DNA of 64,000 bases from Longimicrobiales bacterium (GCA_965116905.1 OZ220732.1:2880001-2944000), one strand, 5' to 3'. Shown: positions 23,270 to 47,803, counted from the first letter of the stretch. Numbers and translations: made by a program. The notes: generated by a model not told the origin, from the letters alone.

Positions 23270-24185
23270 GACCACGGCGGGCGCGCTTGAGCGCAGGTAC
23301 TACGTCGAACCTTTCCTGGACTACCTGGCGCTCGAACGGGGACTGAGACCGGGAACGCTGGCCGCGTATCGTACCGATATCCGCCGCTTCGCGTCGTACC
23401 TTGCGGATCGGGGTGTCTCCGAACCCGGGACGATCGATCACCGGATCCTGCACGAATACCAGTCGAGGTTGAGAAGCGACGGCCTCGCCCCGACGACGAT
23501 TCGCAGGGCCCAGTCGGCGTTGCGCGCATACTTCGGCTTCCTGGCCGCCGAGGGGATCGTGCCGGACGACCCGACCGACCGGATGGATCGTCCCGCCGCT
23601 GCCAGGAGGCTTCCCGAATTCCTGACCCAGGACGAGGCGGCCCGCGTGGTCGAGGCCGTCGATCCGGACTCTCCCGCCCACTGGCGGGATCGCGCCGTGC
23701 TGGAGCTTCTCTATGCCACCGGGATGCGCGTCAGCGAGCTCACGGGGCTGTCGCTCGGCGATGTCGATCTGGAGACGGGGAGCTGCATCGTCTTCGGGAA
23801 GGGCGGAAAGGAGCGACTCGTGCCCGTCGGCGCGGTCGCGCTTGACGTCGTGCAGCGCTACCTCGCCTCCGTTCGTCCGGCCTTCGACCGCGGTCGGGCT
23901 CAGGGAGCCTTCTTCCTCAACCAGCGCGGGGGCCGGCTGAGCCGCATGTCGATCTGGACCATCGTGAAGCAGGCTGCCGCGAGAGCGGGCATCGACCGCG
24001 CCATTTCACCGCACACGCTGCGGCACTCGTGCGCGACGCATCTCCTCGAGGGGGGCGCCGACCTGGCCGCGGTTCAGGAGCTGCTCGGCCACGCCGACAT
24101 CTCCACAACCCAGATCTACACGCACCTGGACAGGGAGTACCTGCGGGCAACCCACCGCCGATACCACCCGCGGAGTCAGGGCTGA
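23259..24185 (+). CDS. xerD: Tyrosine recombinase XerD
   Basis: [47 protein letters not shown]-terminal YHPR. Confidence 0.92.
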
Positions 24186-25786
24186 CGGTCGCCCATCGCA
24201 GCGACGCGGGCAAACAGCTCCGCCGGGGTGTCCACGGAGCGGGCCAGTGCCAGTGCTTCGGCCAGCACCCGGTCACGCTGCGCCAGCACGTCGAGCATGG
24301 GACCGTGGGCGTCGGCGCGGTACAGGTAGCGCATCTGTGTTCGCCAATCCAGGTAATCGCGTGCGACGGGGTCCTGGACGATCTCGGACGACATCCCCTC
24401 CGCAACGAGCTGTTCGGCAAGTCCGTCGAAGGATGAAGAGGGCAGGGGCTCGGCGCTTCCCGCCTCGAGAGCGTCCTTGGCCAGCTCGAAGGCGTACTCC
24501 TCGATGCGCACCGCGAAGGGCACACCAAGCTGGTTGGCGTGATTGAGGAGCGCCTCCTCCTGTGGCTTGAACGAGTCGTCGGCAACCTGCATGTCCGGGA
24601 AGACGCCGCCATCGCTCCGGAGTTCCCGTCCGGCCAGGGTCGCAACCGTCTGGCTCTCCGACTCGACCTCCGGTACGGGCGTGCCGTCGCTGTGCCGCGC
24701 CCGGTGCAGGGAACGGCCCAGCGGCGTGTGCCACGCACCCGTGGTGATGCTGATCCGTCGTCCTGCGATCAGCGGATAGACGGTCTGCACCACGCCCTTG
24801 CCGAACGTCCTCTGCCCCAGCACGACAGCCCGGTCGTGATCCTGCAACGCACCCGATATGATCTCGGCCGCGGACGCGGTGAACTCGTCAACCAGCACGA
24901 TGATGGGGGTGTCGGTGAGGCGCGCCGGGCTGCGGGCCGGCCAGGATTGCGTCTCCAGGATGCCGGTGGGACCCCGGGCCTCCGCGCTCGCCAGCCGCTG
25001 TCCCGGTGCCAGGAACAGGTCTACGATGCGCAAGGATTCGTCGAGGTACCCGCCGGGATTGCGGCGGAGGTCCATGACCAGCGCGCTCAAATCGCCGAAT
25101 TCCCGGAGGGCCTGGTCGAGTTCGTCCGCCGCACCCCGCGCGATGCGATCGATGGCGAGGAACGCGATCCCCCCGTCGAGCAGCGTCGCCTGCACGGCCT
25201 CGACATGCACATTGTCGCGCACGATCGTCATGGGGAGGGGCTCCTCGTAGCCGTCACGCGCCACGCGGATCTGGACGACGGTGCCGGGAGTCCCGCGTAT
25301 GGAGTCCCGCGCCTGATCGAGCGACCAGTCGCGCGCGTCATGCCCCTCCACCCAGACGATTCTGTCCCCCACGATCATTCCCGCGCCCTCGGCGGGCGTG
25401 TCCCGGAACACGGCGGTCACGGTCACCCGTCCCGCAAGGAGGCTGATCTGGACGCCGATTCCGGCGTAGTTGCCCGTGTTCGTTTCGGTGAACCGGCCGT
25501 ATTCGTCGGGAGTGAACACCCGTGCGTACGGGTCGTCCAGCTGCTCGAGGAGACCGTCGATCGCGCGTTCCCATAGAGCCGAGTCGCCCAGCGCCGTCGA
25601 GTGGTACTGGGAGATCGTCTCGAACACCTTGAGAAAGAGCCGGCCCTCTTCCGTGTCCAGGGGGGCCTGCGCGGACACGGAGTCCGCACGGGCTCCAATC
25701 CGAGCACTCGTGTCCTGGCCGTGCGCGGCTCCCGGGAGGAGCGCCAGCGCGGTGGCGATGGATGCAAGCGGGAATGTTCTTGGCAT
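24176..25786 (-). CDS. S41 family C-terminal processing peptidase (CtpA-like)
   Basis: Signal peptide, LDDPY, GIG-PDZ domain, [23 protein letters not shown]. Confidence 0.93.
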
Positions 25787-33327: not shown

Positions 33328-34306
33328 CGTGCGACCCGCCGTCGGGCGTGACGACGGGGTGCTTGCCGAGGGGCGGCGGGTCCTCGAGGCCGAAGCGGAC
33401 GCAGTGAGAAGTCTGGCGGACAGGCTGGGACCGAGCTTCCTCGACGCGGTCGATCTGGTCCACCGCGCAAAGGGGAGAGTCGTGGTTTCCGGCGTCGGCA
33501 AATCCGGGCTGGTCGCCCGCAAGATTGCGGCCACGCTCACGTCGACGGGAACTCCCGCCACCTTTCTCCATCCCGTCGACGGGCTCCACGGCGACCTGGG
33601 CCTGATCGGACCGGAAGACGTGATGATCCTGCTGTCGAAGAGCGGCGCGACCGGCGAACTGGAGGGCCTGCTGGCATTTGCCCGGCGTCACGAAATCGCG
33701 GTGATCGCCCTCACCGGCGACCGTGCTGCGCCCGTGGCGGGACGGGCCACGGTGGCGGTCGACTGCAGCGTATCCTCCGAAGCCTGTCCCATGGACCTCA
33801 CTCCGACCTGTTCCACCACGGCCAGCCTGGCGATGGGCGACGCACTCGCGATGGCGCTGCTGAGGCGGCGGGGCTTCGGGCACCGGGACTTTGCGCGTAT
33901 CCACCCGGGAGGGACCCTGGGGCTGCGCCTGACGCTGACGGTAGAGGACGTTATGGTGAGCGACGACTATCCCGCGGTGCTGCCCGACCATCACGCCCGT
34001 GACGTCATCGTTCCCCTGGCACGAATGAGGGGAACGGTTCCGGTCATTGAAGCGGATCGCTCGGTGACCGGAGTCGTCACGGCAGGCGACCTGACGCGGC
34101 TGATGGAAGGGACGGACGCGTTTCTCGACGTCCCGGTGTCGGGATTCATGAATCGATCGCCCAGGCTCGCCGCGCCGGACGAGCTCGGGTCGGCGGTCGT
34201 CCGGCGGATGGAGGAGCACGGAATCATGGCAATGCCTGTGGTGAGCGACGGGGCCCTGGTCGGCATCGTGCACCTTCACGACCTGCTGCGTGCGGGAGCG
34301 GTCTGA
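33311..34306 (+). CDS. kdsD: Arabinose-5-phosphate isomerase KpsF/GutQ
   Basis: SIS domain GVGKSG, HGDLG, HPGG, plus a CBS pair. Confidence 0.95.
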   Translation: MSVATDVRPAVGRDDGVLAEGRRVLEAEADAVRSLADRLGPSFLDAVDLVHRAKGRVVVSGVGKSGLVARKIAATLTSTGTPATFLHPVDGLHGDLGLIGPEDVMILLSKSGATGELEGLLAFARRHEIAVIALTGDRAAPVAGRATVAVDCSVSSEACPMDLTPTCSTTASLAMGDALAMALLRRRGFGHRDFARIHPGGTLGLRLTLTVEDVMVSDDYPAVLPDHHARDVIVPLARMRGTVPVIEADRSVTGVVTAGDLTRLMEGTDAFLDVPVSGFMNRSPRLAAPDELGSAVVRRMEEHGIMAMPVVSDGALVGIVHLHDLLRAGAV

Positions 34307-34875
34307 TGGCGACCGGTTCGACGCCGGCGGCGAGACCCCGCCGAACCCTGCGCATCGGCATGTGGCTGCCGGTCGGCCTGACGCTGCTGGCGGCGGCGTG
34401 CGTCAATACGACGGAAGAGCAGCCGCCGGCGGGATTGGAGACGGTGGACGCCGACGAGATCATCTACGGTGTGTCCCTCAACATGTCCCGCGAGGGCATC
34501 CGGGAGGCGATGCTCACGGCCGACAGCATGTTCAGCTGGAAGGACTCCACGCACGCACGGGTGATGGGCCTGTCCCTGATCGTCTTCAACGAAAGTGGGG
34601 GACGGAGGGCCACGATTTCGGCCGAGGAGGGACGTCTGAACCGGATGGGCAACGAGTTGACCGCGATGGGCAGCGCGGTTCTGAGCATCCCCGGGCAGGG
34701 CCGCGAAATCCGCACGGAAGAACTCCACTTCGCCCCCGAGGTCGATCGCGTCTGGACCGACGTGCCCGTCGTGATGCACGAGGGCGGGTGCGTGTTCGAG
34801 GGCGACCGGCTCCAGTCGGACATGGATTTCGACGACGTCAGGATCTGGGGAACCCGGGAGCGAGGGTGCTCCTGA
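34306..34875 (+). CDS. lptC: LPS export ABC transporter periplasmic protein LptC
   Basis: Lipoprotein-like signal LAAAC, beta-jellyroll-type sequence (IRTEELHF, VWTDVPV), position in the kds-lpt operon. Confidence 0.8.
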   Translation: MATGSTPAARPRRTLRIGMWLPVGLTLLAAACVNTTEEQPPAGLETVDADEIIYGVSLNMSREGIREAMLTADSMFSWKDSTHARVMGLSLIVFNESGGRRATISAEEGRLNRMGNELTAMGSAVLSIPGQGREIRTEELHFAPEVDRVWTDVPVVMHEGGCVFEGDRLQSDMDFDDVRIWGTRERGCS

Positions 34876-34877
34876 AG

Positions 34878-36854
34878 ATGCGATTCGCCGGACGGGCCTG
34901 CGTGGCGGCGCTTGGCGCAGTGGCGCTTGCCGTGGCAGTTCTCCCCGGCGCATTGGCCGGACAGCAACGGCAGTGCTGGCTGGACGGCGTCGGGGGCTAC
35001 ACCCACAGCACCCGCTTCGATTCCCTGAACTACATACACCGGGCTTCCGGCGGGATCGACTACCGCTGCTCGGACGGCACCCAAATCCTCGCCGATTCGG
35101 CTGTGGTCTACGAAATGAACGGGACGGTGCAACTGTTCGGCCGGATTCGCTTCGAGGACCTGGACACGCGGCTCGACGCCGACAGCGCCCGCTACTTCGG
35201 CAATATCAGCCAGCTCGAGGCGTGGTCGGACGTTACGGTAACGGATCTGCACAGCGACGCGATCATCGAAGGCGACAGTCTCAGGTACTTCCAGGCCTCC
35301 GAGTTCCGCGCCGTGGACCGCGTACTCGTCTACGGGGGCGACCCCCGTGCCACGTTCTATCCACCACCGGTGCCGATGCCGCCCCCGCCTCCCCCGGAGC
35401 CGGAGGCCGCCGACACGGTCGATGCGGCGGCTCCCGACAGTGCGGAAGCCGATCCCCCCGAGGCCGGCGAAACCGACCCGCCCGAGGACGAGGAAACCGA
35501 CCCGCCCCAGGGCGCTGAGGTCCTCGCGGCCGACAGTACCGAGGCCGGTGAAGCCGAGCAAGCCGACAGCGCCGAAGCCGGTCAGCCCGAGCCGGATGCG
35601 ACCGACCCGCCCGAGGACACCGAGGCCCCCGCGGCCGACAGCACCGAGGCCGATCCGGAGGCTGCAACCGTTCCCCCCGCGGATCCACCCCCGGTGGACT
35701 CGGTCAGTCCCCCCCCATACCACATCGAAGCGCGCCGGTTCATGATCGACGGCCGCCGCTATTTCCGCGCGGCCGAAGAGGTGGTCGTGCTGCGCGACTC
35801 CCTGAGGGCCGTCGGAGATTCGCTGGACTTCGACCAGGACCTCGGCACCATGTCCATCATCGGGGACTCGCGCGTGGACCAGCAGGGATTCGAACTGTCG
35901 TCCGACGCGGTAGAGGTGACGCCCACGACGGGGCTGAGCGAGGAGATTCTTGCCCGCGGGAACGCGGAACTCGTGGGCAGGCAAATGACCATGAACGCTC
36001 CTGCCATCCGCATGTTCCTGGACGGTGGCGCAGTCAACCGGCTGGTGGCGATTTCATTGCTCCCTCCGATCGAGCAGGAGGTGCTCGACACGACCGGGCT
36101 GTCGGCTGGCGACGCCGAGCGCGCCCGCGCCCTCGCGGCCGCAGGGGCGAGGGCCGACTCCGCTGAGGCCCAGCCGGTGGACTCGATCGTCCAGCCGTCG
36201 GCCTTTGCGGACGAGTTCAAGCTGACCGCCGACTCGATCGACGTGCTGTCTCCGGCACAGTTGCTCGAGCTCGTGACCGCGGTGGGCTCGGCGCGGGCCG
36301 AGGCCGCGCAACCGGCTTCGGCCGGCTCGGACGGACTTCCCGAGATTGCGAGTCGTGACTGGATGGAGGGCAGTACGATCCTGGCTCATTTTGCCGTGGC
36401 CGACTCGGGGACGGCGGGCGGGTTGACCGGCCAGAACCCGTCGCGACTGGAGACGCTGACCGCGGTCGGCGAGGCTCGCAGTCTCTACCGAATGACCCCG
36501 TCGGACACGGCGGTCACCGAACCCGACGCCCCTCCGGCGTTACACTTAGTCGAGGGCAACCAGATCAGGATCCATATGCGAGGACGAGAAGTCGTGAAGA
36601 TGGAGGTCGAAGGCCAGACCCTGGGCTACCACCTCGAACCGCTGCCGCCGGACTCGGCCGGCGCGGCTGGCGATTCCGCGGCCGCCGGGCTGGATTCGGC
36701 CAACGCAGTGCCCGATTCGGCCAATGCAGTGCCCGATTCGGCCGCCGTGGTCCCGGACAGCGCCACGATCACGCCCGACACGGCCGGGGTTTCTCCCGAT
36801 ACGCTTTCGTCGCGCTCGCGTCCCTTTCTCATGCGCCGCAGAGGCTGGCGATGA
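34878..36854 (+). CDS. Large OstA/LptA-like periplasmic beta-jellyroll protein with acidic/Pro-rich linkers
   Basis: Signal peptide, repeated jellyroll-like segments, position between lptC and lptB; 658 aa. Confidence 0.75.
36651..36806 (+). repeat. 21-bp (7-aa) tandem repeat at the C-terminus of the LptA-like protein
   Basis: GATTCGGCCAA(C/T)GCAGTGCCC units encoding [35 protein letters not shown]. Confidence 0.85.
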
Positions 36855-37633
36855 GCGGGGGAGTGGCGGTAGCGACGGCCTCGATGTTGAGGGGCACCGG
36901 GCTGACCAAGATCTACAAGAAGCGCCGTGTCGTGTCCGAGGTGGACATCCAGGTCCGGCAGCGCGAGATCGTCGCGCTTCTCGGGCCGAACGGGGCGGGG
37001 AAGACCACCACCTTCTACATGCTGGTCGGCCTGATCGCTCCGGACGGCGGACGCGTCTTCCTCGACGAGACGTCACTGACCGGGGTGCCGATGTACAAGC
37101 GGGCGCGGATGGGGGTCGGCTACCTGGCACAGGAGCCGTCGGTCTTTCGGCGCCTGACGGTGGAGCAGAACGTCATGGCGATTCTAGAGACGCTCGATAT
37201 CGATCGCCACGAGCGCGCCGAACGGCTCGAAGAGCTCCTGGGCGAGCTTTCGATCGGCCACCTGCGCAATGCCAAGGCCTTTTCGCTCTCAGGCGGCGAA
37301 CGCCGCCGGCTCGAGATTACCCGAGCGCTCGTACAGCGGCCGAAGTTCATGCTCCTGGACGAGCCGTTCGCGGGTATCGATCCCATTGCCCTGCACGATA
37401 TCCAGGAGATCGTGTCCGAACTCAAGCACCGGGATATCGGCGTGATCATCTCGGACCATAACGTCGAACAGACGCTGGAGATCGTCGACCGCGCGTACAT
37501 CATGCACGAAGGCAGGATACGCGTGGCCGGAACCGTACCCGAGCTCGTGTGGAACGACGAGGTCGCCGACCTCTACCTCGGACCGACCCTGACCGTGCGC
37601 ATGAGATCGAGGTTCCCCCGCCCAGGAACTTGA
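36851..37633 (+). CDS. lptB: LPS export ABC transporter ATP-binding protein
   Basis: [43 protein letters not shown]. Confidence 0.97.
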
Positions 37634-37640
37634 GCATCCG

Positions 37641-39098
37641 GTGACCGCGATCAGGACGGGACTGCACCAGAGCGCTCACCTGCGGCAGGAGTTGAAGGCC
37701 AATCCCCGCCTGTACCAGGCGATGGATCTGCTGTACATGCCTCTTCTCGACCTTCAGGCGCGGCTTGAACAGGAGCTCCTGGAGAACCCGTTCCTGGAAC
37801 TCTCCGAACCGGACAACGAAGAGGTCGACTGGCAGGAAGTCCTGATCGACGACTTCGATGCGGGTGGGCAGAGGATGCGCTATGAACCCCGCGAGCCCTA
37901 CGAGCCGGCCGTGGTCGAGACGCGCCATCTCCACGACTTCCTCCGTGAGCAAGTCGGCCTGCTGCATCTCGACGAGCGGCAGCTCTGGATTGCCGAGGAG
38001 ATCATCGGGAATATCGACGATGACGGCCTCCTGACGTGCACCCTGCAGGACGTGGTGGACGGGCTCGACGCCTCGCGCGAGGAGATCCGGGACAAGGCTC
38101 TCGAACAGGCCGGCAAGATCGACGATGACGAAGAGCGCGACCGCGAAATGGCGGAACTGGCGGCTCTCTTCGCTCCGCACAGGCAGTCGGAGGTGGAATC
38201 GGTACTTCTGGTCGTCCAGTCGCTCGACCCTCCGGGGGTCGGAGCGCGCGGCCTCAGGGAGTGCCTGATGATTCAGCTGCGCAGGGAAGACAGGGAGGAC
38301 ACGCTCGCCTACCGGATCGTGGCCGATCATTTCGACGGCCTGCTGGGCCACCGGTGGGTGGACATCGGGCGCGCGCTGGAGATCGCCCCGGGCAAGGTGC
38401 AGGACGCCGCCGACGACATCGCAAAGCTGGATCCCAAGCCCGGGCGACGGTATGCGGCCGACCCGGACCACTACGTCATACCGGATCTCATCGTGGACAA
38501 GATCGGTGGCGAGTACATGGTCTTCGCCAACGACACGGGACTGCCGCGCCTGCGACTTTCCCAGTCGTACCGGGACGTGGCCGCGGACAGGTCGAAGTTC
38601 GTGGGACCGAACAAGGAGTTCATCGCCAACAAGCTCAACGCCGCGCAGTGGCTCATTCAGATGATCGAACAGCGCCGGCAGACCATGCTCAAGGTGATGC
38701 GGTTCATCGTGGCGCGGCAGTCCGGCTTCTTCGAAAAAGGGGTACAGCACCTGAAGCCGCTTACGCTGCGCGAGGTGGCGGATCATATCGAAATGGCTGA
38801 ATCGACGGTGTCGCGCGTGACCAACGACAAGTTTGTCCAGTCACCCAGCGGCGTGCATCCGCTCAAGTTCTTCTTCTCCGGCGGACTGCCCACGGTGACC
38901 GGAGAGGACGTGTCCACTCGCGGGGTCCAGGAGAAGATCCGGAACCTGATCGGAGATGAGGACTCGCAACGTCCCCTGACGGATCAGGCGCTGGTCAACC
39001 TCCTGAAGAGCGAAGGGATCAAGATCGCCCGCCGCACGGTGGCGAAGTACCGGGACCAGCTGGGGATACTGCCCGCCAGGATGAGAAAGCGCATCTAG
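37641..39098 (+). CDS. rpoN: RNA polymerase sigma-54 factor
   Basis: ENPFLE, DPPGVGAR, ESTVSRVT, RpoN box ARRTVAKYR. Confidence 0.97.
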   Translation: MTAIRTGLHQSAHLRQELKANPRLYQAMDLLYMPLLDLQARLEQELLENPFLELSEPDNEEVDWQEVLIDDFDAGGQRMRYEPREPYEPAVVETRHLHDFLREQVGLLHLDERQLWIAEEIIGNIDDDGLLTCTLQDVVDGLDASREEIRDKALEQAGKIDDDEERDREMAELAALFAPHRQSEVESVLLVVQSLDPPGVGARGLRECLMIQLRREDREDTLAYRIVADHFDGLLGHRWVDIGRALEIAPGKVQDAADDIAKLDPKPGRRYAADPDHYVIPDLIVDKIGGEYMVFANDTGLPRLRLSQSYRDVAADRSKFVGPNKEFIANKLNAAQWLIQMIEQRRQTMLKVMRFIVARQSGFFEKGVQHLKPLTLREVADHIEMAESTVSRVTNDKFVQSPSGVHPLKFFFSGGLPTVTGEDVSTRGVQEKIRNLIGDEDSQRPLTDQALVNLLKSEGIKIARRTVAKYRDQLGILPARMRKRI

Positions 39099-40103
39099 AT
39101 GGCGAACCCCGGTGCCACGGCCGGACGGGCGTCGCCCTCCGAGGCCGATGCCTATGGCGACTTCGCACTTGTCGTGCCGGCCTTCAACGAGGCCGAGAAC
39201 GTCCCCAGGCTGGTCCGCTCGATCCGCGGCGCCTTCGAAGAGTTCGGACTCGCGGGCGAAGTCCTGATCGTCGATGACGGCTCCACCGACGGCACCGGGG
39301 ACCTGGCGCGGACCGAGGGTTCGGGATGGCCCGCGCTGCGGGTCCTTGCGCACAGGGTCAACCTCGGGAAGACCGAGGCGCTGCTCACGGCCGCCGCGGC
39401 AACCGACCGGAAGTACCTGGTGCTCTTCGACGCCGATCTCCAGCATCTTCCGGCCGAGATCCCCCGCTTCCTCGACAAGCTCGCCGAAGGGTGGGACATC
39501 GTGACCGGAAGGAAGGTCGGCGCCTACGACAAGCGGCTGGTTTCGTCGATCTACAATGCGGTGAGCCGCCGCATCTTCGACGTGCCCGTTAGCGACCTGA
39601 ACTCCATGAAGGCGTTCCGCGCGGACATCCTCGACACCGTCAGGCTGCGCCACGACTGGCACCGTTTCTTCGTGGTCATGGCCTGCCGCAGGGGGTTCAC
39701 GGCCACCGAGATCGACATCGCGCTCTACCCGAGAGAAGCCGGAGAGTCGAAGTACTCCGGAAAGGGACGGGTCGTCGGAGCCGTACTGGACCTGGTCGCG
39801 GTCTGGTTCCAGCTTCGGCTCTCCCGCAGGCCGATGCTCGCATTCGGGATTCCGGGCCTTCTGCTGATGACGGGCGGGATCCTGACCGGACTCGCCGCAC
39901 TGTTTGCGCGCTACGCCATGGGCGTGGGATTCCGGCCGCTGCTCTACCTGGTCATGCTGCTGGTGACCGTCGGCGTGCTGTTCTTCGTCGCGGGATTCCT
40001 CGCTGAAATGATCGCGTCGGTGCACGACGAACTCGACGCCTACCGGAGACGCGGCTCCGACCGCAGCTCCACGGGAGCGAAGCCTCGTGACCGGGCCCGC
40101 TGA
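39099..40103 (+). CDS. GT2 glycosyltransferase (ArnC/GtrB-like polyprenol-phosphate glycosyltransferase)
   Basis: PAFNE, VDDGSTD, DADLQ, two C-terminal TM helices. Confidence 0.9.
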   Translation: MANPGATAGRASPSEADAYGDFALVVPAFNEAENVPRLVRSIRGAFEEFGLAGEVLIVDDGSTDGTGDLARTEGSGWPALRVLAHRVNLGKTEALLTAAAATDRKYLVLFDADLQHLPAEIPRFLDKLAEGWDIVTGRKVGAYDKRLVSSIYNAVSRRIFDVPVSDLNSMKAFRADILDTVRLRHDWHRFFVVMACRRGFTATEIDIALYPREAGESKYSGKGRVVGAVLDLVAVWFQLRLSRRPMLAFGIPGLLLMTGGILTGLAALFARYAMGVGFRPLLYLVMLLVTVGVLFFVAGFLAEMIASVHDELDAYRRRGSDRSSTGAKPRDRAR

Positions 40104-40145
40104 GCCCGTCGGCCGGGACCGCGATCCGGTCCTGCTCGGGTGACC

Positions 40146-41291
40146 ATGTCGTCGCCGAGGATTCTCTCCGTGATCGGGACCCGTCCGGAGGCCATCAAGA
40201 TGGCTCCCGTGATCCGGGCCCTGGAGGCTCGCGGAGGGACCACGCACCGGGTGGCCCTGACCGGCCAGCACACCGACATGGTCGACCAGGTGCTGAGCGC
40301 CTTCGGCATCGAACCGGACTACGATCTCGACCTGATGACGCCGGGACAGAGCCTCTATGACATCGGCCACGCCTGCCTCGATGGCCTTCGGAAGGTCGCC
40401 GCGGAGTTCAGGCCCGATGTGACGATCGTGCAGGGCGATACGGCGACGGTCTTCTTCGCCGCCGTGGTCACCTTCTTCCAGCAGGGCAGGCTGGCGCACG
40501 TCGAGGCGGGCCTCCGAAGCCATGAGAAGTGGGCCCCGTTCCCGGAAGAAATGCTCCGCCGCATGACCGACACCGTCTCCGACTTCTGCTTTGCTCCCAC
40601 GGCTGCCGCCGCGGCCAATCTGGGCGCGGAGGGCATCGAGTCCGGACGGGTCTGGGTCACCGGCAACACGGTGGTGGATGCGCTCGAAGAGATCCGCTCC
40701 CGTCCGCTTCCGCTGTGCGACCCCCGCGCGGCCGAATTGCCAGGGCCCGGCCGCCGTCTCGTCCTGCTGACCGCCCACCGGCGCGAGTCGTTCGGCCGTC
40801 CGCTCGAACGCGTGTTCGAGGCCGTGGCGTCGCTCGTCCGCCTTGTCGACGACGTGGACGTGCTCTATCCCGTGCACCCCAATCCGAAGGTTCGAGAGCC
40901 CGCCCGGCGAATCCTGGAAGGCCACCCGCGGGTCCACCTGTTGGAGCCGCTGGACTACGGCGATCTCGTCGCCGCGCTCGGCAGGGCGAGTCTGGTGCTG
41001 ACCGATTCGGGGGGGATCCAGGAGGAAGCGCCCGCGTTCGGCGTGCACACCCTTGTCCTCAGGGAGGTGACGGAGCGCCCCGAGGCGGTGCAGGCGGGGG
41101 CCGCCACACTCGTCGGCACCGATGCGGAACGGATCCTGTCCGAAGCGACAGGGCGCCTCGACCGGACGGAGACCGACCCCGTGCCGGCGAATCCCTACGG
41201 GGACGGCCGGGCCGGCGAGCGCATCGCGGACATACTCCTGGCCGAACTGAGGGGGTTGCCGCGCCAGACGGCCGATTGGGGCGGGCCGTGA
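40146..41291 (+). CDS. wecB: UDP-N-acetylglucosamine 2-epimerase (non-hydrolysing)
   Basis: GTRPEAIKMAP, TGQH, HVEAGLRS, PFPEE, TDSGGIQEEA. Confidence 0.96.
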   Translation: MSSPRILSVIGTRPEAIKMAPVIRALEARGGTTHRVALTGQHTDMVDQVLSAFGIEPDYDLDLMTPGQSLYDIGHACLDGLRKVAAEFRPDVTIVQGDTATVFFAAVVTFFQQGRLAHVEAGLRSHEKWAPFPEEMLRRMTDTVSDFCFAPTAAAAANLGAEGIESGRVWVTGNTVVDALEEIRSRPLPLCDPRAAELPGPGRRLVLLTAHRRESFGRPLERVFEAVASLVRLVDDVDVLYPVHPNPKVREPARRILEGHPRVHLLEPLDYGDLVAALGRASLVLTDSGGIQEEAPAFGVHTLVLREVTERPEAVQAGAATLVGTDAERILSEATGRLDRTETDPVPANPYGDGRAGERIADILLAELRGLPRQTADWGGP

Positions 41292-42397
41292 GGATCGTCG
41301 TCCACTGCGTGTACTTCCCCCCCGAGGTGGGCGGACTCGAGAGCCATGTGCACTACCTGTGCCGGGGACTCGCCCGGCAGGGTCACGACGTGACGGTGAT
41401 CACGTCGCTGTCTCAGCCCGGTCTCGCAAAGGAAGAAGTCCGGGACGGTATCCGCATACACCGCACGCCGTTGCCGTCCCGCACACCAGTGGGTTGGTTC
41501 CTTCACGCGGTGGGGTCGACGCCTCGCACGCGCGCAGCCGTACGCGATGCTGACATCGTGCACGCACAGGCGTTTCCGTCGCTCCTCCCTTGCGCACTGG
41601 CACTGGCGGGGGCAAGCGCGCCGCTCCTTTGCACCCTTCACACCTCGCATTTCCTGCGCCTGGCCCGGCGGCCGCTGGCACGGACAGGGCTTGGCAGGCT
41701 CCTCGAACTAAGCGATTACAACTTCGCTGCCAGCAAGGAGATCGCGGATGTCGGCGAGAGCCTGAGCGAGTCGGTGTCGGTGGAGGTCGTGGTCAACGGA
41801 GTGGAGACCGACATCTTTCGGCCAGTGCCGCCCGGGATCGCGCGGCGATCCGGCCGCCAGCGCATCATCGTCCCCCGGCGTCTGTTTCCGAAGAACGGCG
41901 TGGAGTACTTCGTGCGGGCGCTGCCGGCAATTCTGGCGGGCGCGGACGTGGAAGCGATGGTGGTCGGGGACGGGCCGGAACGAGAGCGGCTGCAGGGGAT
42001 CGCGGGGGAGTTGGGGGTGGCGGAACGGATCGAGTTCCTGGGCGCGCGTCCCCACGCGGACATGCCGGGACTGCTGTGCTCGGCGGATATCTCCGTATTC
42101 CCGTCGCTGATGGAGGCGACATCGGTCGCGGCCCTGGAGTCGATGGCATGCGGAGTCCCGGTCGCCGCCTCCGCCGTCGGCGGCCTTCCACAGATCATCG
42201 ACGACGAGGTGGGCGGGCTCTTTGCACCGGCAGACCCGGAAGCGCTGGCCGCCACCGTGTTGCGCCTGCTGGGCGATGCCGGACTGCCCGAGCGTGCGAA
42301 GGCCGCCAGGCGGCGCGTCGTGTCCCATTGGAGCAACGCGCGTCTGGTGGAGCGCCACCTGGAGGTCTACCGTGAGCTGCTGGGGAGGCGCACATGA
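41288..42397 (+). CDS. GT4 family glycosyltransferase
   Basis: PPEVGGLE, NGV, KNG, EATSVAALESMACG (EX7E). Confidence 0.92.
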   Translation: MRIVVHCVYFPPEVGGLESHVHYLCRGLARQGHDVTVITSLSQPGLAKEEVRDGIRIHRTPLPSRTPVGWFLHAVGSTPRTRAAVRDADIVHAQAFPSLLPCALALAGASAPLLCTLHTSHFLRLARRPLARTGLGRLLELSDYNFAASKEIADVGESLSESVSVEVVVNGVETDIFRPVPPGIARRSGRQRIIVPRRLFPKNGVEYFVRALPAILAGADVEAMVVGDGPERERLQGIAGELGVAERIEFLGARPHADMPGLLCSADISVFPSLMEATSVAALESMACGVPVAASAVGGLPQIIDDEVGGLFAPADPEALAATVLRLLGDAGLPERAKAARRRVVSHWSNARLVERHLEVYRELLGRRT

Positions 42398-44829
42398 CCA
42401 AAGCGCGACCGTCGGCGGTGAACATGCCGTGGTGGCTGACCGCCGGGATCTTCGTGCTGACCACGGTGATCCTGTTCGGCGAGTTCATCTTCTCCGACCG
42501 GATGCTCTACGGCGGGGACACGCTCGCGCTGGGATACATGGCGCGCGCCTACTTCGCGGAACAACTTGCGGCGGGCGCCTTTCCGCTGTGGAATCCGCGG
42601 CTTCTTGGCGGAATCCCCTTCGTGGAAGCCCTCTCCGCCGGCGACTCGATCTACCCCACGAGTCTCCTGTACTACTTCATGGAGCCGTACCGGGCTCTGG
42701 GCTGGAAGCTCGTGCTCCATGTACTGGCGGGCGGGTTCTTCATGTACGGCTGGGCCCGCGGCCTGGGCCTGCAACGCCCGGCCGCCGCGCTCGGGGGGCT
42801 GGCCTGGCTGCTGGCCCCGGTCATCGTGACCCTCGTACTGCCCGGCAACGACGGCAAGCTCATGGTGGCGTCCCTCGCGCCCCTCGTCTTCTGGGCGGCC
42901 GACTCGGTCCTCCGCAGTCCCTCGGGGAAGACCGGCGCCGGGCTCGCGGGCGCCGTCGCCCTGGCCAGCCTGACCACTCAGTTCCAGACCGCGTACTTTC
43001 TCTTCGGTTCGGTCGGCGCCTACGCGGCATTTCGCACCGTACGGCTCTGGCGGGGCAGGGGACCGGGCGAGCGGGGCGTGCGGGAGGCGAGGGCGGCCCT
43101 TGCGCCGCTTGGTCTGTTCCTGCTGTGCGCGGTCCTGGGTGCAGGGATCGCGAGCGTCCAGCTGATACCCGCGGCGGAATACGTCACCGAGTCCTCCCGG
43201 CGCATTGCGACCACCCTCGAGGCCACGCCCGAAGAGGCGATCGCCTATTCGAGCTCCTGGTCATTGCACCCGGAAGAAGTGGCGGGCCTGATGGTTCCGG
43301 AGTTCGTGGGGAACAGCGGGGCCGAAGCCGACTGGGCTCGGGGGACCTACTGGGGACGGAACGCCTTCAAGGGCAACCACGAGTACCTGGGAATCCCCGT
43401 ATTGCTGCTCGCCGTGTTCGCGCTTTTCGGTCGGCGCCGGCGGGCCCTCAGGTGGTTCATGGCGGCGATGAGCCTGCTCTGGCTCCTCTTTGCGCTGGGC
43501 ACCCACACCCCCGTGTGGCGGCTCTTCTATGAAATCGTGCCCGGCATCTCGCTGTTCCGGGTTCCGTCGATAAGCGCTTTTCTGGTCAGCTTCGGTGCCA
43601 CCACGCTGTTCGCGCTCGGAGTCGACGACATGGTGCGCGAGCCCCCATCGCGCGCCGGGTTCTTCCGCACGCGGCGTGGCCAGGCCCTGCTCGCATGCCT
43701 GGGCTTGCTGGTCGTCGGCCTCCTCCTCCAGTCCTCGGGCGCGCTCGGGCGAATGTGGACGACACTGGTGTATCCGGATGCGGGCCCGCGCAGCCTGGCG
43801 ACGCTTGCAGCCGCTTCCCCCTTCATCACCCGCGGCTTCGTGATCGCGATCCTGCTGGCCGGCCTGACGATCGGCTCGCTGTGGGCCGGCCTTGAGCGCA
43901 AAGTGCCCCTCACCGCCGCGCTGGCTGCGCTGGGACTGCTCGTCGCGCTCGACCTCGGCCGGGTGGACCGGGCCTTCATCACCACATGGGACTTCCATGC
44001 CTGGGCGGCCGCCGACGACAACACGCGCTTCCTGCAGAACCGCCGCGAGACAGCCCCGCCGTTCCGGGTCGCGGACCTGCGGGGCGACGACCAGAACGTC
44101 GATCTGGCCATGTTCGGACTGGACCTGTTCGCGGGGCACCACCCGAACGACCTGGCCCGGTACCGCCAGCTTCTCGGCCTGGAGGCGAGCCGCCGGGAGG
44201 GCGCGAATACACGGCATCAGAACGTCCTGCGCCTGATGAACGTCAAGTACCTGGTCTGGCCCGAGGGGGCATTCGGCGGGCCTCCCTACGAGGGCGCTCC
44301 GCGCATGAGTTCGGCCCAAACCGCGAGGGGGCTCGAGGCGGTCTATGCCTACCCGGGGCTGGACCGGGCCTGGCTCGCGGGAGCGACCACGGTGCTGGAC
44401 GACGATCGCGCTATCGAGCGGATCCTGTCCGCCGACTTCGATCCCGCGGCCGAGGCCGTCCTCTCCAACGCCGTGCCGATCGCCCCCGTGTCCGACGCCT
44501 CGGGCTCGGTCGAGTGGGAGATGGATACACCGGGGCACCGCACGCTCACGGTCCGGAGCGATGGCCCGGCTCTGCTGGTCGTTTCCGAAAACTGGTTCCC
44601 CGGGTGGGAGGCCGAGGTCGATGGCCGGCAAACGCCCGTGCACCGGGTCAACCTCACGCTGCAGGCCGTGGAGATCCCCGGGCCGGGCGTCCATAGCGTC
44701 ACGCTGCGCTTCACGGCCCCCTCCGTCCGCAATGCACTGCGGGTCAGCATCGCGTGCGCGGTGGCAACCCTGCTGCTCCTGACGGTGTCCCTGGTTCCCG
44801 CGCGGCTGCGGCAACGGAAGCGGGATTGA
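42394..44829 (+). CDS. YfhO-family GT-C membrane glycosyltransferase
   Basis: PLWNP...GG.PF, many TM helices, YLG, RVP, C-terminal LVVSENWFPGWEAEVDG....VN..LQAV. Confidence 0.85.
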   Translation: MTKARPSAVNMPWWLTAGIFVLTTVILFGEFIFSDRMLYGGDTLALGYMARAYFAEQLAAGAFPLWNPRLLGGIPFVEALSAGDSIYPTSLLYYFMEPYRALGWKLVLHVLAGGFFMYGWARGLGLQRPAAALGGLAWLLAPVIVTLVLPGNDGKLMVASLAPLVFWAADSVLRSPSGKTGAGLAGAVALASLTTQFQTAYFLFGSVGAYAAFRTVRLWRGRGPGERGVREARAALAPLGLFLLCAVLGAGIASVQLIPAAEYVTESSRRIATTLEATPEEAIAYSSSWSLHPEEVAGLMVPEFVGNSGAEADWARGTYWGRNAFKGNHEYLGIPVLLLAVFALFGRRRRALRWFMAAMSLLWLLFALGTHTPVWRLFYEIVPGISLFRVPSISAFLVSFGATTLFALGVDDMVREPPSRAGFFRTRRGQALLACLGLLVVGLLLQSSGALGRMWTTLVYPDAGPRSLATLAAASPFITRGFVIAILLAGLTIGSLWAGLERKVPLTAALAALGLLVALDLGRVDRAFITTWDFHAWAAADDNTRFLQNRRETAPPFRVADLRGDDQNVDLAMFGLDLFAGHHPNDLARYRQLLGLEASRREGANTRHQNVLRLMNVKYLVWPEGAFGGPPYEGAPRMSSAQTARGLEAVYAYPGLDRAWLAGATTVLDDDRAIERILSADFDPAAEAVLSNAVPIAPVSDASGSVEWEMDTPGHRTLTVRSDGPALLVVSENWFPGWEAEVDGRQTPVHRVNLTLQAVEIPGPGVHSVTLRFTAPSVRNALRVSIACAVATLLLLTVSLVPARLRQRKRD

Positions 44830-45788
44830 CGCTCTCCGGGGAAGCGCGCGCCGGGTTGGGCCGGAAGCACGCGCGGCGGTGGGGCGCTGCGGCGGCCAAG
44901 GCTGCCCTTGCGGTCGCCGTGACATGGCTGATCCTGCGGGCCGCGGGTGTTCGCCTCGCCGAGGCCGGTTCCAATATCGACTGGTCGCTTCTGCGACCGG
45001 ACATTCCCGTCCTGCTCCTGTCGATGGCGGCCCTCTTCGCCGCATTTGCCCTGCAGGCCCGGCTGTGGGCCTGGCTCCTGACCCATTTCGGAGGACCGCC
45101 GGTTCGGCTCGTGGTGGCCACGGCGATCATCCTCGTGGCCAACATGGGGAGGTACATCCCTGGCAAGATCTTCCAACTGGCGGGCCTGGCCCTGCTCGCC
45201 AGGCGTGAAGGCGCATCCGGGGTGCAGGCCGGCGTGGCCGCGGTCACGGGACAGGTCCTGAATCTCCTGGCGGCCGCGCTGGTGGGTGGATGGGCGGCCT
45301 ACGCCGCCGGTTCGATCCCGCCCGGGATCGGCCTCGCCGCGGGATTGGCGGTCGTGCTGGGTGTCGCCGTTCTGGTGGGCACAGGCTGGGCCGGAAGGGT
45401 GCTGCGCTGGATGCTGCGGCGCAGCGGTCACGAACAGGACGTGGCGTTGCCTGGGCGGAGGGTCCTCGGACTCTGTCTGGCCGGATACGTCGCGGGCTGG
45501 GCCGCGTATGGCCTCGCGTTCTTCTGGCTGGCCCGCGGTGCCGGCCTCGATATCCCGCTCGCCACCGCCATCACGGCCTTCTCCGGCGCCTATTTCGTCG
45601 GCTACATTTCTCTGGTACCCGGGGGTATCGGGGTCCGGGAAGGAGGTCTTTACGTGCTCCTTGTTTCGGTGCTGGGACCTCAGGGCAGCCTGGTATTGGC
45701 CGGACTGCAGCGCGTGTGGATCACGGTTGGCGAGCTCCTGGGAGCCGTGGGCGGCACAGCGCTACTGAAGATGCGGGGGCGGGCATGA
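44826..45788 (+). CDS. UPF0104 / LPG-synthase-TM flippase-like membrane protein
   Basis: GRYIPGK and PGGIGVRE motifs; multi-TM. Confidence 0.8.
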   Translation: MTLSGEARAGLGRKHARRWGAAAAKAALAVAVTWLILRAAGVRLAEAGSNIDWSLLRPDIPVLLLSMAALFAAFALQARLWAWLLTHFGGPPVRLVVATAIILVANMGRYIPGKIFQLAGLALLARREGASGVQAGVAAVTGQVLNLLAAALVGGWAAYAAGSIPPGIGLAAGLAVVLGVAVLVGTGWAGRVLRWMLRRSGHEQDVALPGRRVLGLCLAGYVAGWAAYGLAFFWLARGAGLDIPLATAITAFSGAYFVGYISLVPGGIGVREGGLYVLLVSVLGPQGSLVLAGLQRVWITVGELLGAVGGTALLKMRGRA

Positions 45789-46516
45789 CAGATTCCGAAC
45801 GCGTGCTGGTCGTGATTCCCACGTACAACGAGCGCGACAACCTGCCGCGCATCGTCCCGCAGGTGCTGGAGCAGGGAGACGCGTTGCACGTGCTCGTAGT
45901 CGACGACAACTCGCCCGACGGAACCGGTGACATCGCTGACCAGCTGGCGGCCGGCAACGAACGGGTCGCCGTGCTCCACCGACCGGGAAAGCAGGGCCTG
46001 GGCGCGGCTTACGTTGCCGGGTTCAAGTGGGGATTGAAGAGAGATTTCGACGCGTTCGTGGAGATGGACGCCGATCTCTCCCACCCGCCGGCCATGCTGC
46101 CCGTGATCCTGGACGAGATCCGGCGGGACATCGACGTCGTGGTGGGCTCCCGATACCTGGGCGGCCGGATCACGGTGGTGAACTGGCCGATGCGGCGTCT
46201 GATGATCAGCCTCTTCGGGTCGTGGTACGCGCGGGTGATCACCCGCCTTCCGGTTCGCGACGCCACCGGTGGCTTCAACGCCTTCCGGCGCCGCGTCCTC
46301 GAGCGCGTCCGCCTGGACCGGATCCAGTCGAACGGATACAGCTTTCAGATCGAGCTGAAGCTGAGGGCGTGGCGAGGGGGCTTCGAGTTGCGCGAGGTGC
46401 CCTTCGTCTTCACCGAACGGGACAGCGGCGAGTCCAAGATGTCGAAGAACATCATCTGGGAAGCCGTGTGGCGGGTCTGGAAGCTGCGCATTCTGGATCT
46501 GCTGGGACGCCTCTGA
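45785..46516 (+). CDS. Polyprenol monophosphomannose synthase-like GT2
   Basis: IPTYNE, VDDNSPDGT, MDADLSH, DATGGF, GYSFQIE, GESKMS. Confidence 0.93.
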   Translation: MTDSERVLVVIPTYNERDNLPRIVPQVLEQGDALHVLVVDDNSPDGTGDIADQLAAGNERVAVLHRPGKQGLGAAYVAGFKWGLKRDFDAFVEMDADLSHPPAMLPVILDEIRRDIDVVVGSRYLGGRITVVNWPMRRLMISLFGSWYARVITRLPVRDATGGFNAFRRRVLERVRLDRIQSNGYSFQIELKLRAWRGGFELREVPFVFTERDSGESKMSKNIIWEAVWRVWKLRILDLLGRL

Positions 46517-46527
46517 CAGCCCGAGCC

Positions 46528-47145
46528 ATGGCGCTCATCGATCTGTGCTACCGGTGTCCACAGTGCGGCCACGACCCGATGAGCGGGGAAGGGGACGCGG
46601 CCTGGTGCGCATCCTGCGGCATTCGGCTCGAGCGCAGCCGCGGCCGACTCCTGCTGTCGCTTCCGGACGGCGACAAGCGGTTCGACGTCAGCGCGGCCGA
46701 CCTGTGCCGGCGGATCGACGAACACGGCGGCCCGGTCAGCCGTGCGACCAGGGACGACGGTACGCTGGAATACTCGGCCCGCGCGCGGATTTCCTGGCGG
46801 GTCGCGGAGCGGGCCGTTCGGTACCGCGGGGTGTTGCGGGGCTTCGCCGAGAGCATGGGCCCCGCGGCGCCGGGCACCATCACTGTCGACCGCGAACGGG
46901 TACATGTGGGGTGCGGCGACCGACGCGCCGGAAGCTGGCGCCATCTCGACCTTGGCGCGGTCCAGGCGTCGTCCTCTTCGCTGCAGCTGTCGCTGCCGGG
47001 TGACCAGCTCGTCCAGCTCCGTTTCGTTGACGATTCGCCCAGGCGCTGGGAAACCCTGATGCGGCGGCTGATCAGCGACGCGTACGAGCGCGCGGGGCGG
47101 GGCACGGTGGTGGAATTCCAGCCCAGGATCGTCACACGATGGTAG
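46528..47145 (+). CDS. Hypothetical Zn-ribbon protein (CPQC...CASC)
   Basis: YRCPQCG...WCASCG N-terminus, beta-rich C-terminus; in operon context. Confidence 0.75.
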   Translation: MALIDLCYRCPQCGHDPMSGEGDAAWCASCGIRLERSRGRLLLSLPDGDKRFDVSAADLCRRIDEHGGPVSRATRDDGTLEYSARARISWRVAERAVRYRGVLRGFAESMGPAAPGTITVDRERVHVGCGDRRAGSWRHLDLGAVQASSSSLQLSLPGDQLVQLRFVDDSPRRWETLMRRLISDAYERAGRGTVVEFQPRIVTRW

Positions 47146-47152
47146 GCGCCCA

Positions 47153-47803
47153 ATGGTAGGCGGCTGGTATGCGTTCTTCCGGTTCGCGTTCGGGTGGATC
47201 GGGAAGGTGCTGGCCCGGTGCCGCGTGTCGGGCACGTCGCACATCCCCCGCAAAGGGGCCTTCATCCTGGTCGCGAACCACGAGAGCATCCTCGATCCGC
47301 TCCTCATACAGACGAACTGCCGCCGCACCGTCCATTTCTTCGCGAAGAGCACACAGTTCGGGGCGAACGCCCTGTTCGCCTGGTTCCTGCCCCGTGTCGC
47401 GGCCATTCCGGCCCGCCGCTACCGGGTCGATCCGCAATCGGTCCGCACCGCGCTCAGGGCCCTGGACCACGGCGACGGCGTGGGCATCTACCTGGAGGGA
47501 GAGCGCAGCTGGGAGGGCGCGCTGCGGCCCTTCCGGCGCGGGTCCATCCGCCTGATCCTGAAAGCGGGCGTGCCCGTGGTCCCGTGCCACATATCCGGCA
47601 CCTACGACGCGTGGCCGCGCTGGACCCGTTCCAGGTGGCGGTCGCCCGTTCACATTCGCTACGGCGAGCCGCTGCACTTCGGCGTGCACGAAACGCGGGC
47701 CGAACGGGAATCGGCGCTGGAGCCCGCCACCCGACGCCTGCGCCAGGCCCTGCTCGGATTGGCCGGGGAGCGTCCCGACCGACCGTGGCCCACTGGCGCC
47801 TGA
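47153..47803 (+). CDS. plsC: 1-acyl-sn-glycerol-3-phosphate acyltransferase family
   Basis: NHESILDP (HX4D), FFAK, YLEGERS, PVVP. Confidence 0.88.
   Translation: MVGGWYAFFRFAFGWIGKVLARCRVSGTSHIPRKGAFILVANHESILDPLLIQTNCRRTVHFFAKSTQFGANALFAWFLPRVAAIPARRYRVDPQSVRTALRALDHGDGVGIYLEGERSWEGALRPFRRGSIRLILKAGVPVVPCHISGTYDAWPRWTRSRWRSPVHIRYGEPLHFGVHETRAERESALEPATRRLRQALLGLAGERPDRPWPTGA

Follow-up and report, generated by a model that had tools for sequence, protein, structure and literature searches.

A probable Bacteroidota-type general protein O-glycosylation system in Gemmatimonadota, with candidate enzymes for its two transfer steps

The general system by which Bacteroidota O-glycosylate proteins is already known and is described as unique to that phylum (PMC12871550; bioRxiv 10.64898/2026.07.27.740950). 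A two-step model of the system requires an oligosaccharyltransferase (OTase) and a ligase, both unidentified (PMC12871550), and together with the core flippase they have escaped identification for more than 15 years (PMC12871550; 10.64898/2026.07.27.740950). The second of these sources, a preprint of July 2026, predicts the YfhO family as the Bacteroidota OTase on four in-silico arguments, which it leaves untested. The present analysis concerns a window of 64,000 nucleotides from a Longimicrobiales bacterium (GCA_965116905.1 OZ220732.1:2880001-2944000), in which a YfhO-family glycosyltransferase of the C type (GT-C) lies in a gene cassette downstream of an LptA-like protein packed with the D-[ST]-x sequon of the Bacteroidota system. 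It is concluded, with a probability of roughly 0.9, that a general O-glycosylation system of the Bacteroidota type is present in Gemmatimonadota. In a literature search that covered subscription journals thinly, neither a general system in Gemmatimonadota nor a link between human TMEM260 and Bacteroidota was found in print.

Hoarding and purging of the sequon

Throughout the phylum, linkers of periplasmic proteins and lipoproteins hoard the sequon, whose occurrence in outer-membrane barrels is purged. The LptA-like protein of the window was found to hold exactly 25 D[ST][AILVMT] tripeptides, where a first-pass annotation of the window had counted about 25 by eye, against 3.3±1.7 and at most 14 in 10,000 shuffles; among its 29 D[ST] pairs, 25 match this classic motif and 26 the extended one. 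The genome average is 2.3-4.0 sequons per 1000 residues. In 41 Gemmatimonadota LptA rows (mostly close kin, one gene split over two rows and G142 counted twice), 942 sequons were observed versus 135 expected, and 11 distant orthologs gave 146/23.5, a 6.2-fold excess. These orthologs were located by synteny, a PF13100 search matching only 6 of 30 genomes. The lptC orthologs are enriched as a set, with 80 sequons versus 30 expected over 40 rows, and the cytoplasmic neighbours of LptA score 0.21-0.97, WecB excepted. For Acidobacteriota, 41 genomes were searched and 27 had a match; with one protein taken from each and G179 left out, the 26 LptC/LptA jellyroll proteins stand at 63/54.5 = 1.16. The contrast between the phyla gives p about 4e-32, a value to be read with the kinship of the rows in mind.

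In the AlphaFold model of the LptA-like protein, 10-residue blocks with a predicted local distance difference test score (pLDDT) below 70 hold 14 of the 25 sites. These blocks belong to a Pro/acidic linker, to a loop around residue 544 and to the C-terminal tail; in the tail, eight sites recur once per 7 residues over residues 593-642. The other 11 sites are in or near the folded beta-jellyroll parts. A caveat of the first-pass annotation, that some ADS motifs merely reflect this fold, was rejected by the Acidobacteriota control at 1.16, and a jellyroll origin was rejected too on the distant LptA proteins, where 103 of 146 sequons have no preceding Ala. The label LptA is weak by profile (OstA_2, E 6e-4, under the cut-off), but the position between lptC and lptB and the predicted all-beta fold make a firm case for the identity. 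In one relative the LptA ortholog is split across two reading frames by a frameshift or an assembly error (L036).

The host genome is a single 4.2-Mb contig, 97% complete, in which 3217 genes were called with a dicodon model and export classes were assigned by a simple signal-peptide and membrane rule, both heuristic. Its attribution to Gemmatimonadota (Longimicrobiales) was borne out by yfhO relatives at 57-89% identity that carry these labels. A bulk enrichment of the sequon in secreted proteins, as anticipated by the first-pass annotation, was not found: observed/expected (O/E) ratios were 0.74 for Sec-type proteins, 1.18 for lipoproteins and 0.88 for strictly cytoplasmic proteins, and the 838 exported proteins gave 1090/1237 = 0.88, equal to the cytoplasm. 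Bulk enrichment is absent because hoarding and purging cancel, and for the same reason the bulk comparison was rejected as the right test, since the signal lies in the spread and not in the mean. The variance of the per-protein z was 2.23 in 740 exported versus 0.87 in 964 cytoplasmic proteins, with 0.80-0.99 for control motifs (reversed, permuted, Glu), and it was still 1.53 after removal of the top six proteins (Levene p 5e-6). Ten outliers were obtained at p<1e-3, nine of them in exported or membrane classes and none strictly cytoplasmic, and four permutations of the sequon residues yielded no outlier. The top proteins hold 30, 25, 19, 15, 10 and 10 sequons. Among the outliers and near-outliers are a lipoprotein with Big_5, a HEAT protein, a protein with a plug domain, SurA/PPIases, CcmH and PilN. 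In a size-matched comparison at 700-1200 residues, the Sec class showed 150/305 versus 140/155 for the cytoplasmic class. A contrast drawn at z<-1.5 was set aside, since protein length confounds it.

The purge is clearest in TonB receptors. Their C-terminal 650 residues gave 13/67 = 0.19 in the host genome (32 proteins; 66.5±7.8 in 100 shuffles, minimum 47). The extended motif D[ST][SCGF] is depleted too, at 0.33 in the host barrels and at 0.33-0.43 overall, and the reversed and permuted motifs stand at 0.87-1.31. Thirty receptors from five other Gemmatimonadota of five families gave 15/60 = 0.25, each genome at 0.39 or less, whereas 30 receptors from five Acidobacteriota gave 48/59 = 0.82 (p 2e-5 between the phyla). 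Since the Acidobacteriota controls are flat, neither the folds nor high GC account for the pattern. Selection on the sequon is confined to exported classes, with permuted and Acidobacteriota controls flat, and selection for and against one tripeptide in exported proteins only is the prediction of a high-occupancy periplasmic modification. In Bacteroidota, occupancy in T. forsythia is reported to exceed 99% at most sites (PMC8550257), and abundant surface cargo of P. gingivalis is without the motif (PMC8729774). N-glycosylation was rejected as a candidate, with N-x-S/T at chance in exported proteins (O/E 0.89-1.07) and no STT3 match.

A published structure supplies modelled glycans. In the 2.4 Å photosystem of Gemmatimonas phototrophica, O-glycans were modelled at cytochrome c Thr108 and at Ser331 of reaction-centre subunit M (RC-M); the core is mannose (Man), glucuronic acid (GlcA) and rhamnose (Rha) as Man(a1-2 GlcA)(a1-4 Rha), with O-acetylated GlcA and a terminal N-acetylglucosamine (GlcNAc), and the template was the Pedobacter heparinase II glycan (PMC8849296). 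Genome G136 encodes proteins identical to chains C and M of PDB 7O0U, in which Thr108 reads D-T-L, a classic sequon, and Ser331 reads D-S-F, an extended one. Both modelled glycans thus sit on sequons, at two sites seen only in cryo-electron microscopy (cryo-EM), and in G. phototrophica rather than the host organism. Man, Rha and GlcA form the common reducing-end trisaccharide of Bacteroidota (PMC12871550). The glycan passage of PMC8849296 mentions neither a sequon nor a general system, and glycan terms are absent from the main text of PMC12817894, on a second Gemmatimonas photosystem. With the two-sided selection, the two glycans on sequons lend strong support to the earlier proposal of O-glycosylation in this lineage, with exported proteins as substrates and the Bacteroidota sequon as the site.

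Individual proteins extend this picture in several directions. A Big_5/carboxypeptidase-regulatory lipoprotein (G000:C1:3085880-3087793, minus strand, L161) holds the genome maximum of 30 sequons and bears a C-terminal 7-residue repeat resembling that of LptA, and would make a good glycosylation reporter. A 924-residue exported HEAT-repeat protein (G000:C1:1249844-1252618, plus strand, L162) has 19 sequons, many of them spaced 18 residues apart along a predicted long helix, and a protein without a Pfam match (G000:C1:100475-101689, L164) has 10 in a similar helical setting. At the other extreme, large exported proteins of 759-1623 residues, several of them lipoprotein-like, are encoded at G000:C1:3418521-3472892 and are the most sequon-depleted of the genome (1/11.1, 2/11.4 and 4/11.6); possibly they are surface proteins that need to stay unglycosylated. 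The horizontally acquired photosystem subunits pufM/pufC of G136 and G103 (L270, L269) have several extra sequons in their C-terminal tails, which suggests that imported periplasmic proteins gain glycosylation tails.

Candidate enzymes for the two transfer steps

A division of labour is proposed in which GT117 (TMEM260-like, DUF2723) acts first and YfhO second, an assignment of inferred roles that is held at slightly better than even odds. The DPM1-like GT2 at the end of the cassette would make polyprenol-phosphate-mannose, from which GT117 would attach mannose to Ser/Thr of D-[ST]-x sequons in the periplasm, and YfhO would then add the rest of the glycan. The outer glycan may be built on undecaprenyl phosphate by GT2a (the GT2 with a membrane tail, predicted to load sugar on polyprenol phosphate), GT4 and, in Longimicrobiales, WecB, with the UPF0104 protein as the presumed flippase of the lipid-linked sugar.

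The two GT117 genes of the host lie outside the window and match PF11028 at 125-136 bits; a search of the genome, which is 97% complete, for other GT-C families gave no match to PMT_2, STT3 or Wzy_C. The GT117 family is present in 150 of 151 phylum genomes, and B. thetaiotaomicron is the only one of 14 controls to have it. When the first copy is aligned with human TMEM260 (PDB 9rql, phmmer E 1e-15), Asp44 falls on Asp52, the residue required for O-mannosylation (PMC10214176). A W-D-x-x-E motif is common to the Gemmatimonadota and Bacteroidales copies, and a quick tree of 40 N-terminal modules separated 12 Gemmatimonadota, 4 Bacteroidales and 10 unnamed rows from 10 Acidobacteriota rows (Shimodaira-Hasegawa-like approximate likelihood ratio test, SH-aLRT, 98). 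In Bacteroidota, P. gingivalis has the DUF2723 protein PGN_0192 (PMC8729774 supplement), and in P. vulgatus CL10 internal transposon insertions were 0 for DUF2723, 0 for the polyprenol-P-Man synthase and at 0.69% of sites for YfhO; the matrix covers five further strains, and each of the three genes is flagged in four of these (PMC13114119). As to the donor, the DPM1-like GT2 (about 240 residues) has dolichol-P-mannose synthase 5mlz as its best PDB match (E 3e-36; next 5e-10). A single copy is present per genome in 150 of 151 phylum genomes (E<=1e-60), the only genome without a match, G057, having yfhO at a contig end. Mannose at the root of the glycan points to GT117 for the first step, and by homology GT117 is likely a stronger candidate than YfhO for the first sugar. 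From this we infer that two universal GT-C families fill the OTase and ligase slots, GT117 first.

The closest contender keeps the same system and lets YfhO attach the glycan, core or whole, to the sequon, with GT117 adding a branch sugar or serving other acceptors. Homologs of yfhO are present in all 151 sampled phylum genomes, mostly in single copy. Of 20 distant loci, 16 have yfhO directly upstream of the DPM1-like GT2, two are rearranged and two hold orphan paralogs. Its PF09586 match reaches 35.2 bits versus a cut-off of 28.5, over the C-terminal 61 residues only, and falls below the cut-off in a six-frame search. The first external loop holds Asp42, which is shared by all 31 sequences compared, and the predicted model (pLDDT 91) has a GT-C fold. 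Foldseek ranked AftD, ArnT and then STT3, and VIA-align gave Z scores of 19.4 for AftD, 19.1 for STT3, 16.4 for AglB, 15.3 for PglB, 14.5 for Pmt4 and 13.8 for ArnT; an Atlas search returned YfhO clusters only. The structural comparison suggested at the outset agrees with a GT-C fold; AftD, with a glycan acceptor, and STT3, with a protein acceptor, are tied, and the acceptor is not fixed by the fold. YfhO acting first is favoured by this standing above ArnT, by the four arguments of the preprint and by the streptococcal YfhO-family enzymes PgtC2 and PgfM1, which directly glycosylate disordered Ser/Thr protein regions using a GT2 partner (PMC12041528). Several points stand against it: P. gingivalis glycosylates 145 proteins, has DUF2723 and is reported to be without YfhO (PMC8729774; 10.64898/2026.07.27.740950); the reducing sugar is mannose, and only GT117 here has a homolog by sequence that is a proven protein O-mannosyltransferase; the only YfhO of G136 is a divergent paralog away from the locus, 41% identical to the locus-type copy of G067; and the Bacillus and Listeria enzymes act on glycopolymers, with teichoic acids as acceptors in Firmicutes (PMC5836110). 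On balance, a first step by YfhO is unlikely, at something like one chance in four. As a transferase in general YfhO is a fair candidate, as first proposed from the sequence, though the preprint already names it and GT117 fits the mannose step better. A second YfhO paralog is found outside the lpt locus in G067 and G136 (L104, L105/L280).

Less probable still, and improbable on its own account, is a split in which GT117 and the DPM1-like GT2 glycosylate proteins while YfhO, GT2a, GT4 and WecB decorate lipid A-core, lipopolysaccharide (LPS) or another envelope glycolipid. The cassette is fused to a kdsB-pyrG-kdsA-kdsC-kdsD-lptCAB LPS cluster across the class, the missing O-antigen ligase (Wzy_C) match leaves room for another ligase, ArnT is among the top Foldseek matches of YfhO, GT2a is ArnC/GtrB-like, and the teichoic-acid role in Firmicutes (PMC5836110) fits as well. 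Such a split is hard to reconcile with a modelled protein glycan of four sugars, which requires periplasmic transfer beyond one Man, and with GT2a, GT4, flippase and DPM1-like GT2 staying together in G136; VIA-align places ArnT well behind AftD and STT3, and yfhO in Bacteroides adjoins sahH/luxS and not lpt genes (10.64898/2026.07.27.740950). A reading without general glycosylation, in which low-complexity repeats and turns of the beta-jellyroll make up the sequon clusters and the locus itself is an LPS locus, would agree with the equal bulk O/E in both classes, with the many sites in tandem repeats and with D73-S74 and D452-S453, invariant inside the LptA fold, but it is barely credible, leaving unexplained the four- to five-fold TonB-barrel purge, the flat Acidobacteriota controls and the two modelled glycans on sequons.

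Several points weigh against a general system with GT117 as initiator and YfhO as ligase. By the measure of Fig. 2A in PMC12871550, the motif is not over-represented in the non-cytoplasmic proteins (0.88), and the lipoprotein value drops from 1.18 to 1.04 without four outliers; these ratios depend on the heuristic gene calls and signal-peptide classes. V[ST][AILVMT] likewise yields 10 outliers, if weaker ones (best p 2e-6), and cytoplasmic WecB orthologs reach 90/49 = 1.85. Several of the TonB-receptor frames came from automatic selection, and some of their C-termini seem truncated. PF11028 is found in 18 of 40 Acidobacteriota, mostly at weaker scores and with no sequon signature, so having GT117 is not sufficient; the Acidobacteriota branches of the quick GT117 tree are long. 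The G. phototrophica sugars were assigned by map fit and the Pedobacter template, with neither site covered by mass spectrometry (PMC8849296), and the support for the host organism itself is drawn from its sequence. The reported absence of YfhO from P. gingivalis depends on a Pfam cut-off that the YfhO of the window barely passes, and the directly protein-glycosylating PgtC2 and PgfM1 favour YfhO as the first enzyme. Finally, the tree-wide survey of a 2025 review names Bacteroidota and Fibrobacterota, the latter as the only sister case in its text, in which Gemmatimonadota do not appear.

The gene cassette and its neighbours

The tightly packed gene run described by the first-pass annotation was recovered, with gaps of -4 to +11 nucleotides except before wecB. 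Downstream of LptA the order is lptB, rpoN, GT2 with a membrane tail, wecB, GT4, yfhO, the PF03706 protein and the DPM1-like GT2 (Table 1), and the order kds-lptCAB-rpoN-GT2-GT4-(flippase)-yfhO-(flippase)-GT2 is conserved across the class; wecB occurs in the locus mainly in Longimicrobiales. Adjacency of lptA and yfhO was rejected as an enzyme-substrate link, since in G136 and G103 yfhO is gone from the locus, which retains GT2-GT4-GT2, and their LptA proteins still have 18 and 19 sequons. Genes inserted in the loci of relatives encode methyltransferases and an acetyltransferase, along with GDP-mannose dehydratases and a bacterial sugar transferase, a set that would suit a tailored glycan. The other proteins in which sequons had been noted do contain them (three in the S41 protease, two in LptC, one in the SnoaL-like protein), but each is individually near chance. 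The label S41 follows the earlier annotation and is presumably correct.

Table 1. Features of the window and GT117 genes elsewhere in the host genome (G000:C1)
Feature	Coordinates	Strand	Remarks
S41-type protease	24176..25786	-	3 sequons in 536 aa, near chance alone; label presumed
lptC	34306..34875	+	2 sequons; predicted substrate; TIGR04409 over cut-off
LptA/OstA-like periplasmic beta-jellyroll protein	34878..36854	+	658 aa with a signal peptide and 25 sequons; predicted to be a heavily glycosylated substrate
Pro/acidic low-confidence linker of LptA	35361..35717	+	about residues 162-280, 6 sequons; pLDDT <50 over 183-250
C-terminal 7-aa repeat of LptA	36651..36806	+	8 sequons at 7-residue spacing; pLDDT <50 over 602-658
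GT2 (PF00535), GT2a	39099..40103	+	C-terminal membrane segments; ArnC/GtrB/AglJ/PgfS-like; after rpoN in most class loci
WecB	40140..41291	+	non-hydrolysing UDP-GlcNAc 2-epimerase; TIGR00236 414 bits, over cut-off
GT4 glycosyltransferase	41288..42397	+	predicted to extend lipid-linked glycan
YfhO-family GT-C	42394..44829	+	811 aa, single copy in genome; candidate outer-glycan ligase or OTase
UPF0104/PF03706 flippase-like membrane protein	44826..45788 (start may be 44754)	+	adjoins yfhO or DPM1-like GT2 in relatives
DPM1-like GT2	45785..46516	+	predicted polyprenol-phosphate-mannose synthase
TMEM260-like GT117, copy 1	G000:C1:498948-501326		PF11028 over cut-off
TMEM260-like GT117, copy 2	G000:C1 about 2064530-2066708		PF11028 over cut-off

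Further observations concern the surroundings. At 46528-47803 of the window, on the plus strand, a 205-residue open reading frame (ORF) that matches no Pfam family and has two CxxC pairs is followed by an acyltransferase (PF01553), and the pair is kept 3' of the DPM1-like gene in many Longimicrobiales. Between GT4 and yfhO, some relatives (L047, L053, L057, L073) have a hot spot of variable insertions, with Methyltransf_24 genes and several Pfam-less ORFs. In another class, the yfhO locus of G002 (L111:11576-13177 and L111:15079-17451) also holds a PMT/PMT_2-like GT-C and a GDP-mannose dehydratase, and further a bacterial sugar transferase and a 791-residue ORF without a Pfam match; genomes of that class have 3-4 YfhO-like matches.

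Comparison with known systems

These results extend the Bacteroidota system to a second phylum by a test independent of bulk enrichment, tie it to two little-noticed cryo-EM glycans, and narrow the missing enzymes to two GT-C families and a DPM1-like donor synthase. It is a tentative suggestion, a shade short of even odds, that D-[ST]-x O-mannosylation is ancestral to the Fibrobacteres-Chlorobi-Bacteroidetes (FCB) group and present in all Gemmatimonadota, with a W-D-x-x-E GT117 initiator and a YfhO ligase as its enzymes. If true, bacterial general glycosylation and a human disease-linked O-mannosyltransferase share one enzyme family. With sequence as the only input, the purge of the sequon from outer-membrane barrels could serve to trace the system across uncultured phyla.

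Among known GT-C enzymes, the YfhO of the window shares its predicted fold with STT3/PglB/AglB, AftD and ArnT, but at 8-16% identity and with no STT3 Pfam match. The logic of a GT2, a flippase-like protein and a YfhO GT-C is that of the Firmicute systems, CsbB-YfhO of B. subtilis (lipoteichoic acid) and the streptococcal GtrB-PgtC2 and PgfS-PgfM1, which have the C-terminal PF09586 match and, in streptococci, disordered exported protein regions as acceptors. The Firmicute enzymes differ in that they place single sugars onto teichoic acids or poly-Ser/Thr tracts without a D-[ST]-x sequon, and the PF09586 similarity is limited to about 60 residues. The bacterial GT117 proteins resemble human TMEM260 (CAZy GT117) in PF11028, the catalytic Asp and a second conserved block at residues 411-529. 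They have W-D-x-x-E in place of its G-D-S-G-E and no TPR domain in a Pfam scan, and the human enzyme serves folded IPT domains, uses dolichol-phosphate-mannose and adds a mannose that is not elongated.

The closest relative is the Bacteroidota system of B. fragilis, T. forsythia, P. gingivalis, P. intermedia, Flavobacterium and Pedobacter. The Gemmatimonadota case differs in phylum and in the lack of bulk enrichment in the host genome; the cassette of the window is without the metG-wzx of the LFG locus, for which the rest of the genome was not searched, has a UPF0104 protein instead and hangs on a kds-lpt-rpoN cluster, and the two GT117 paralogs of the host are about 720-790 residues long versus 1134 in P. 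vulgatus. In conclusion, both phyla have the same sequon including the extended third position, its confinement to exported proteins and avoidance in some surface proteins, a Man/Rha/GlcA core as modelled in G. phototrophica (PMC8849296), and the YfhO, DUF2723 and polyprenol-P-Man synthase families that are essential or nearly so in P. vulgatus.

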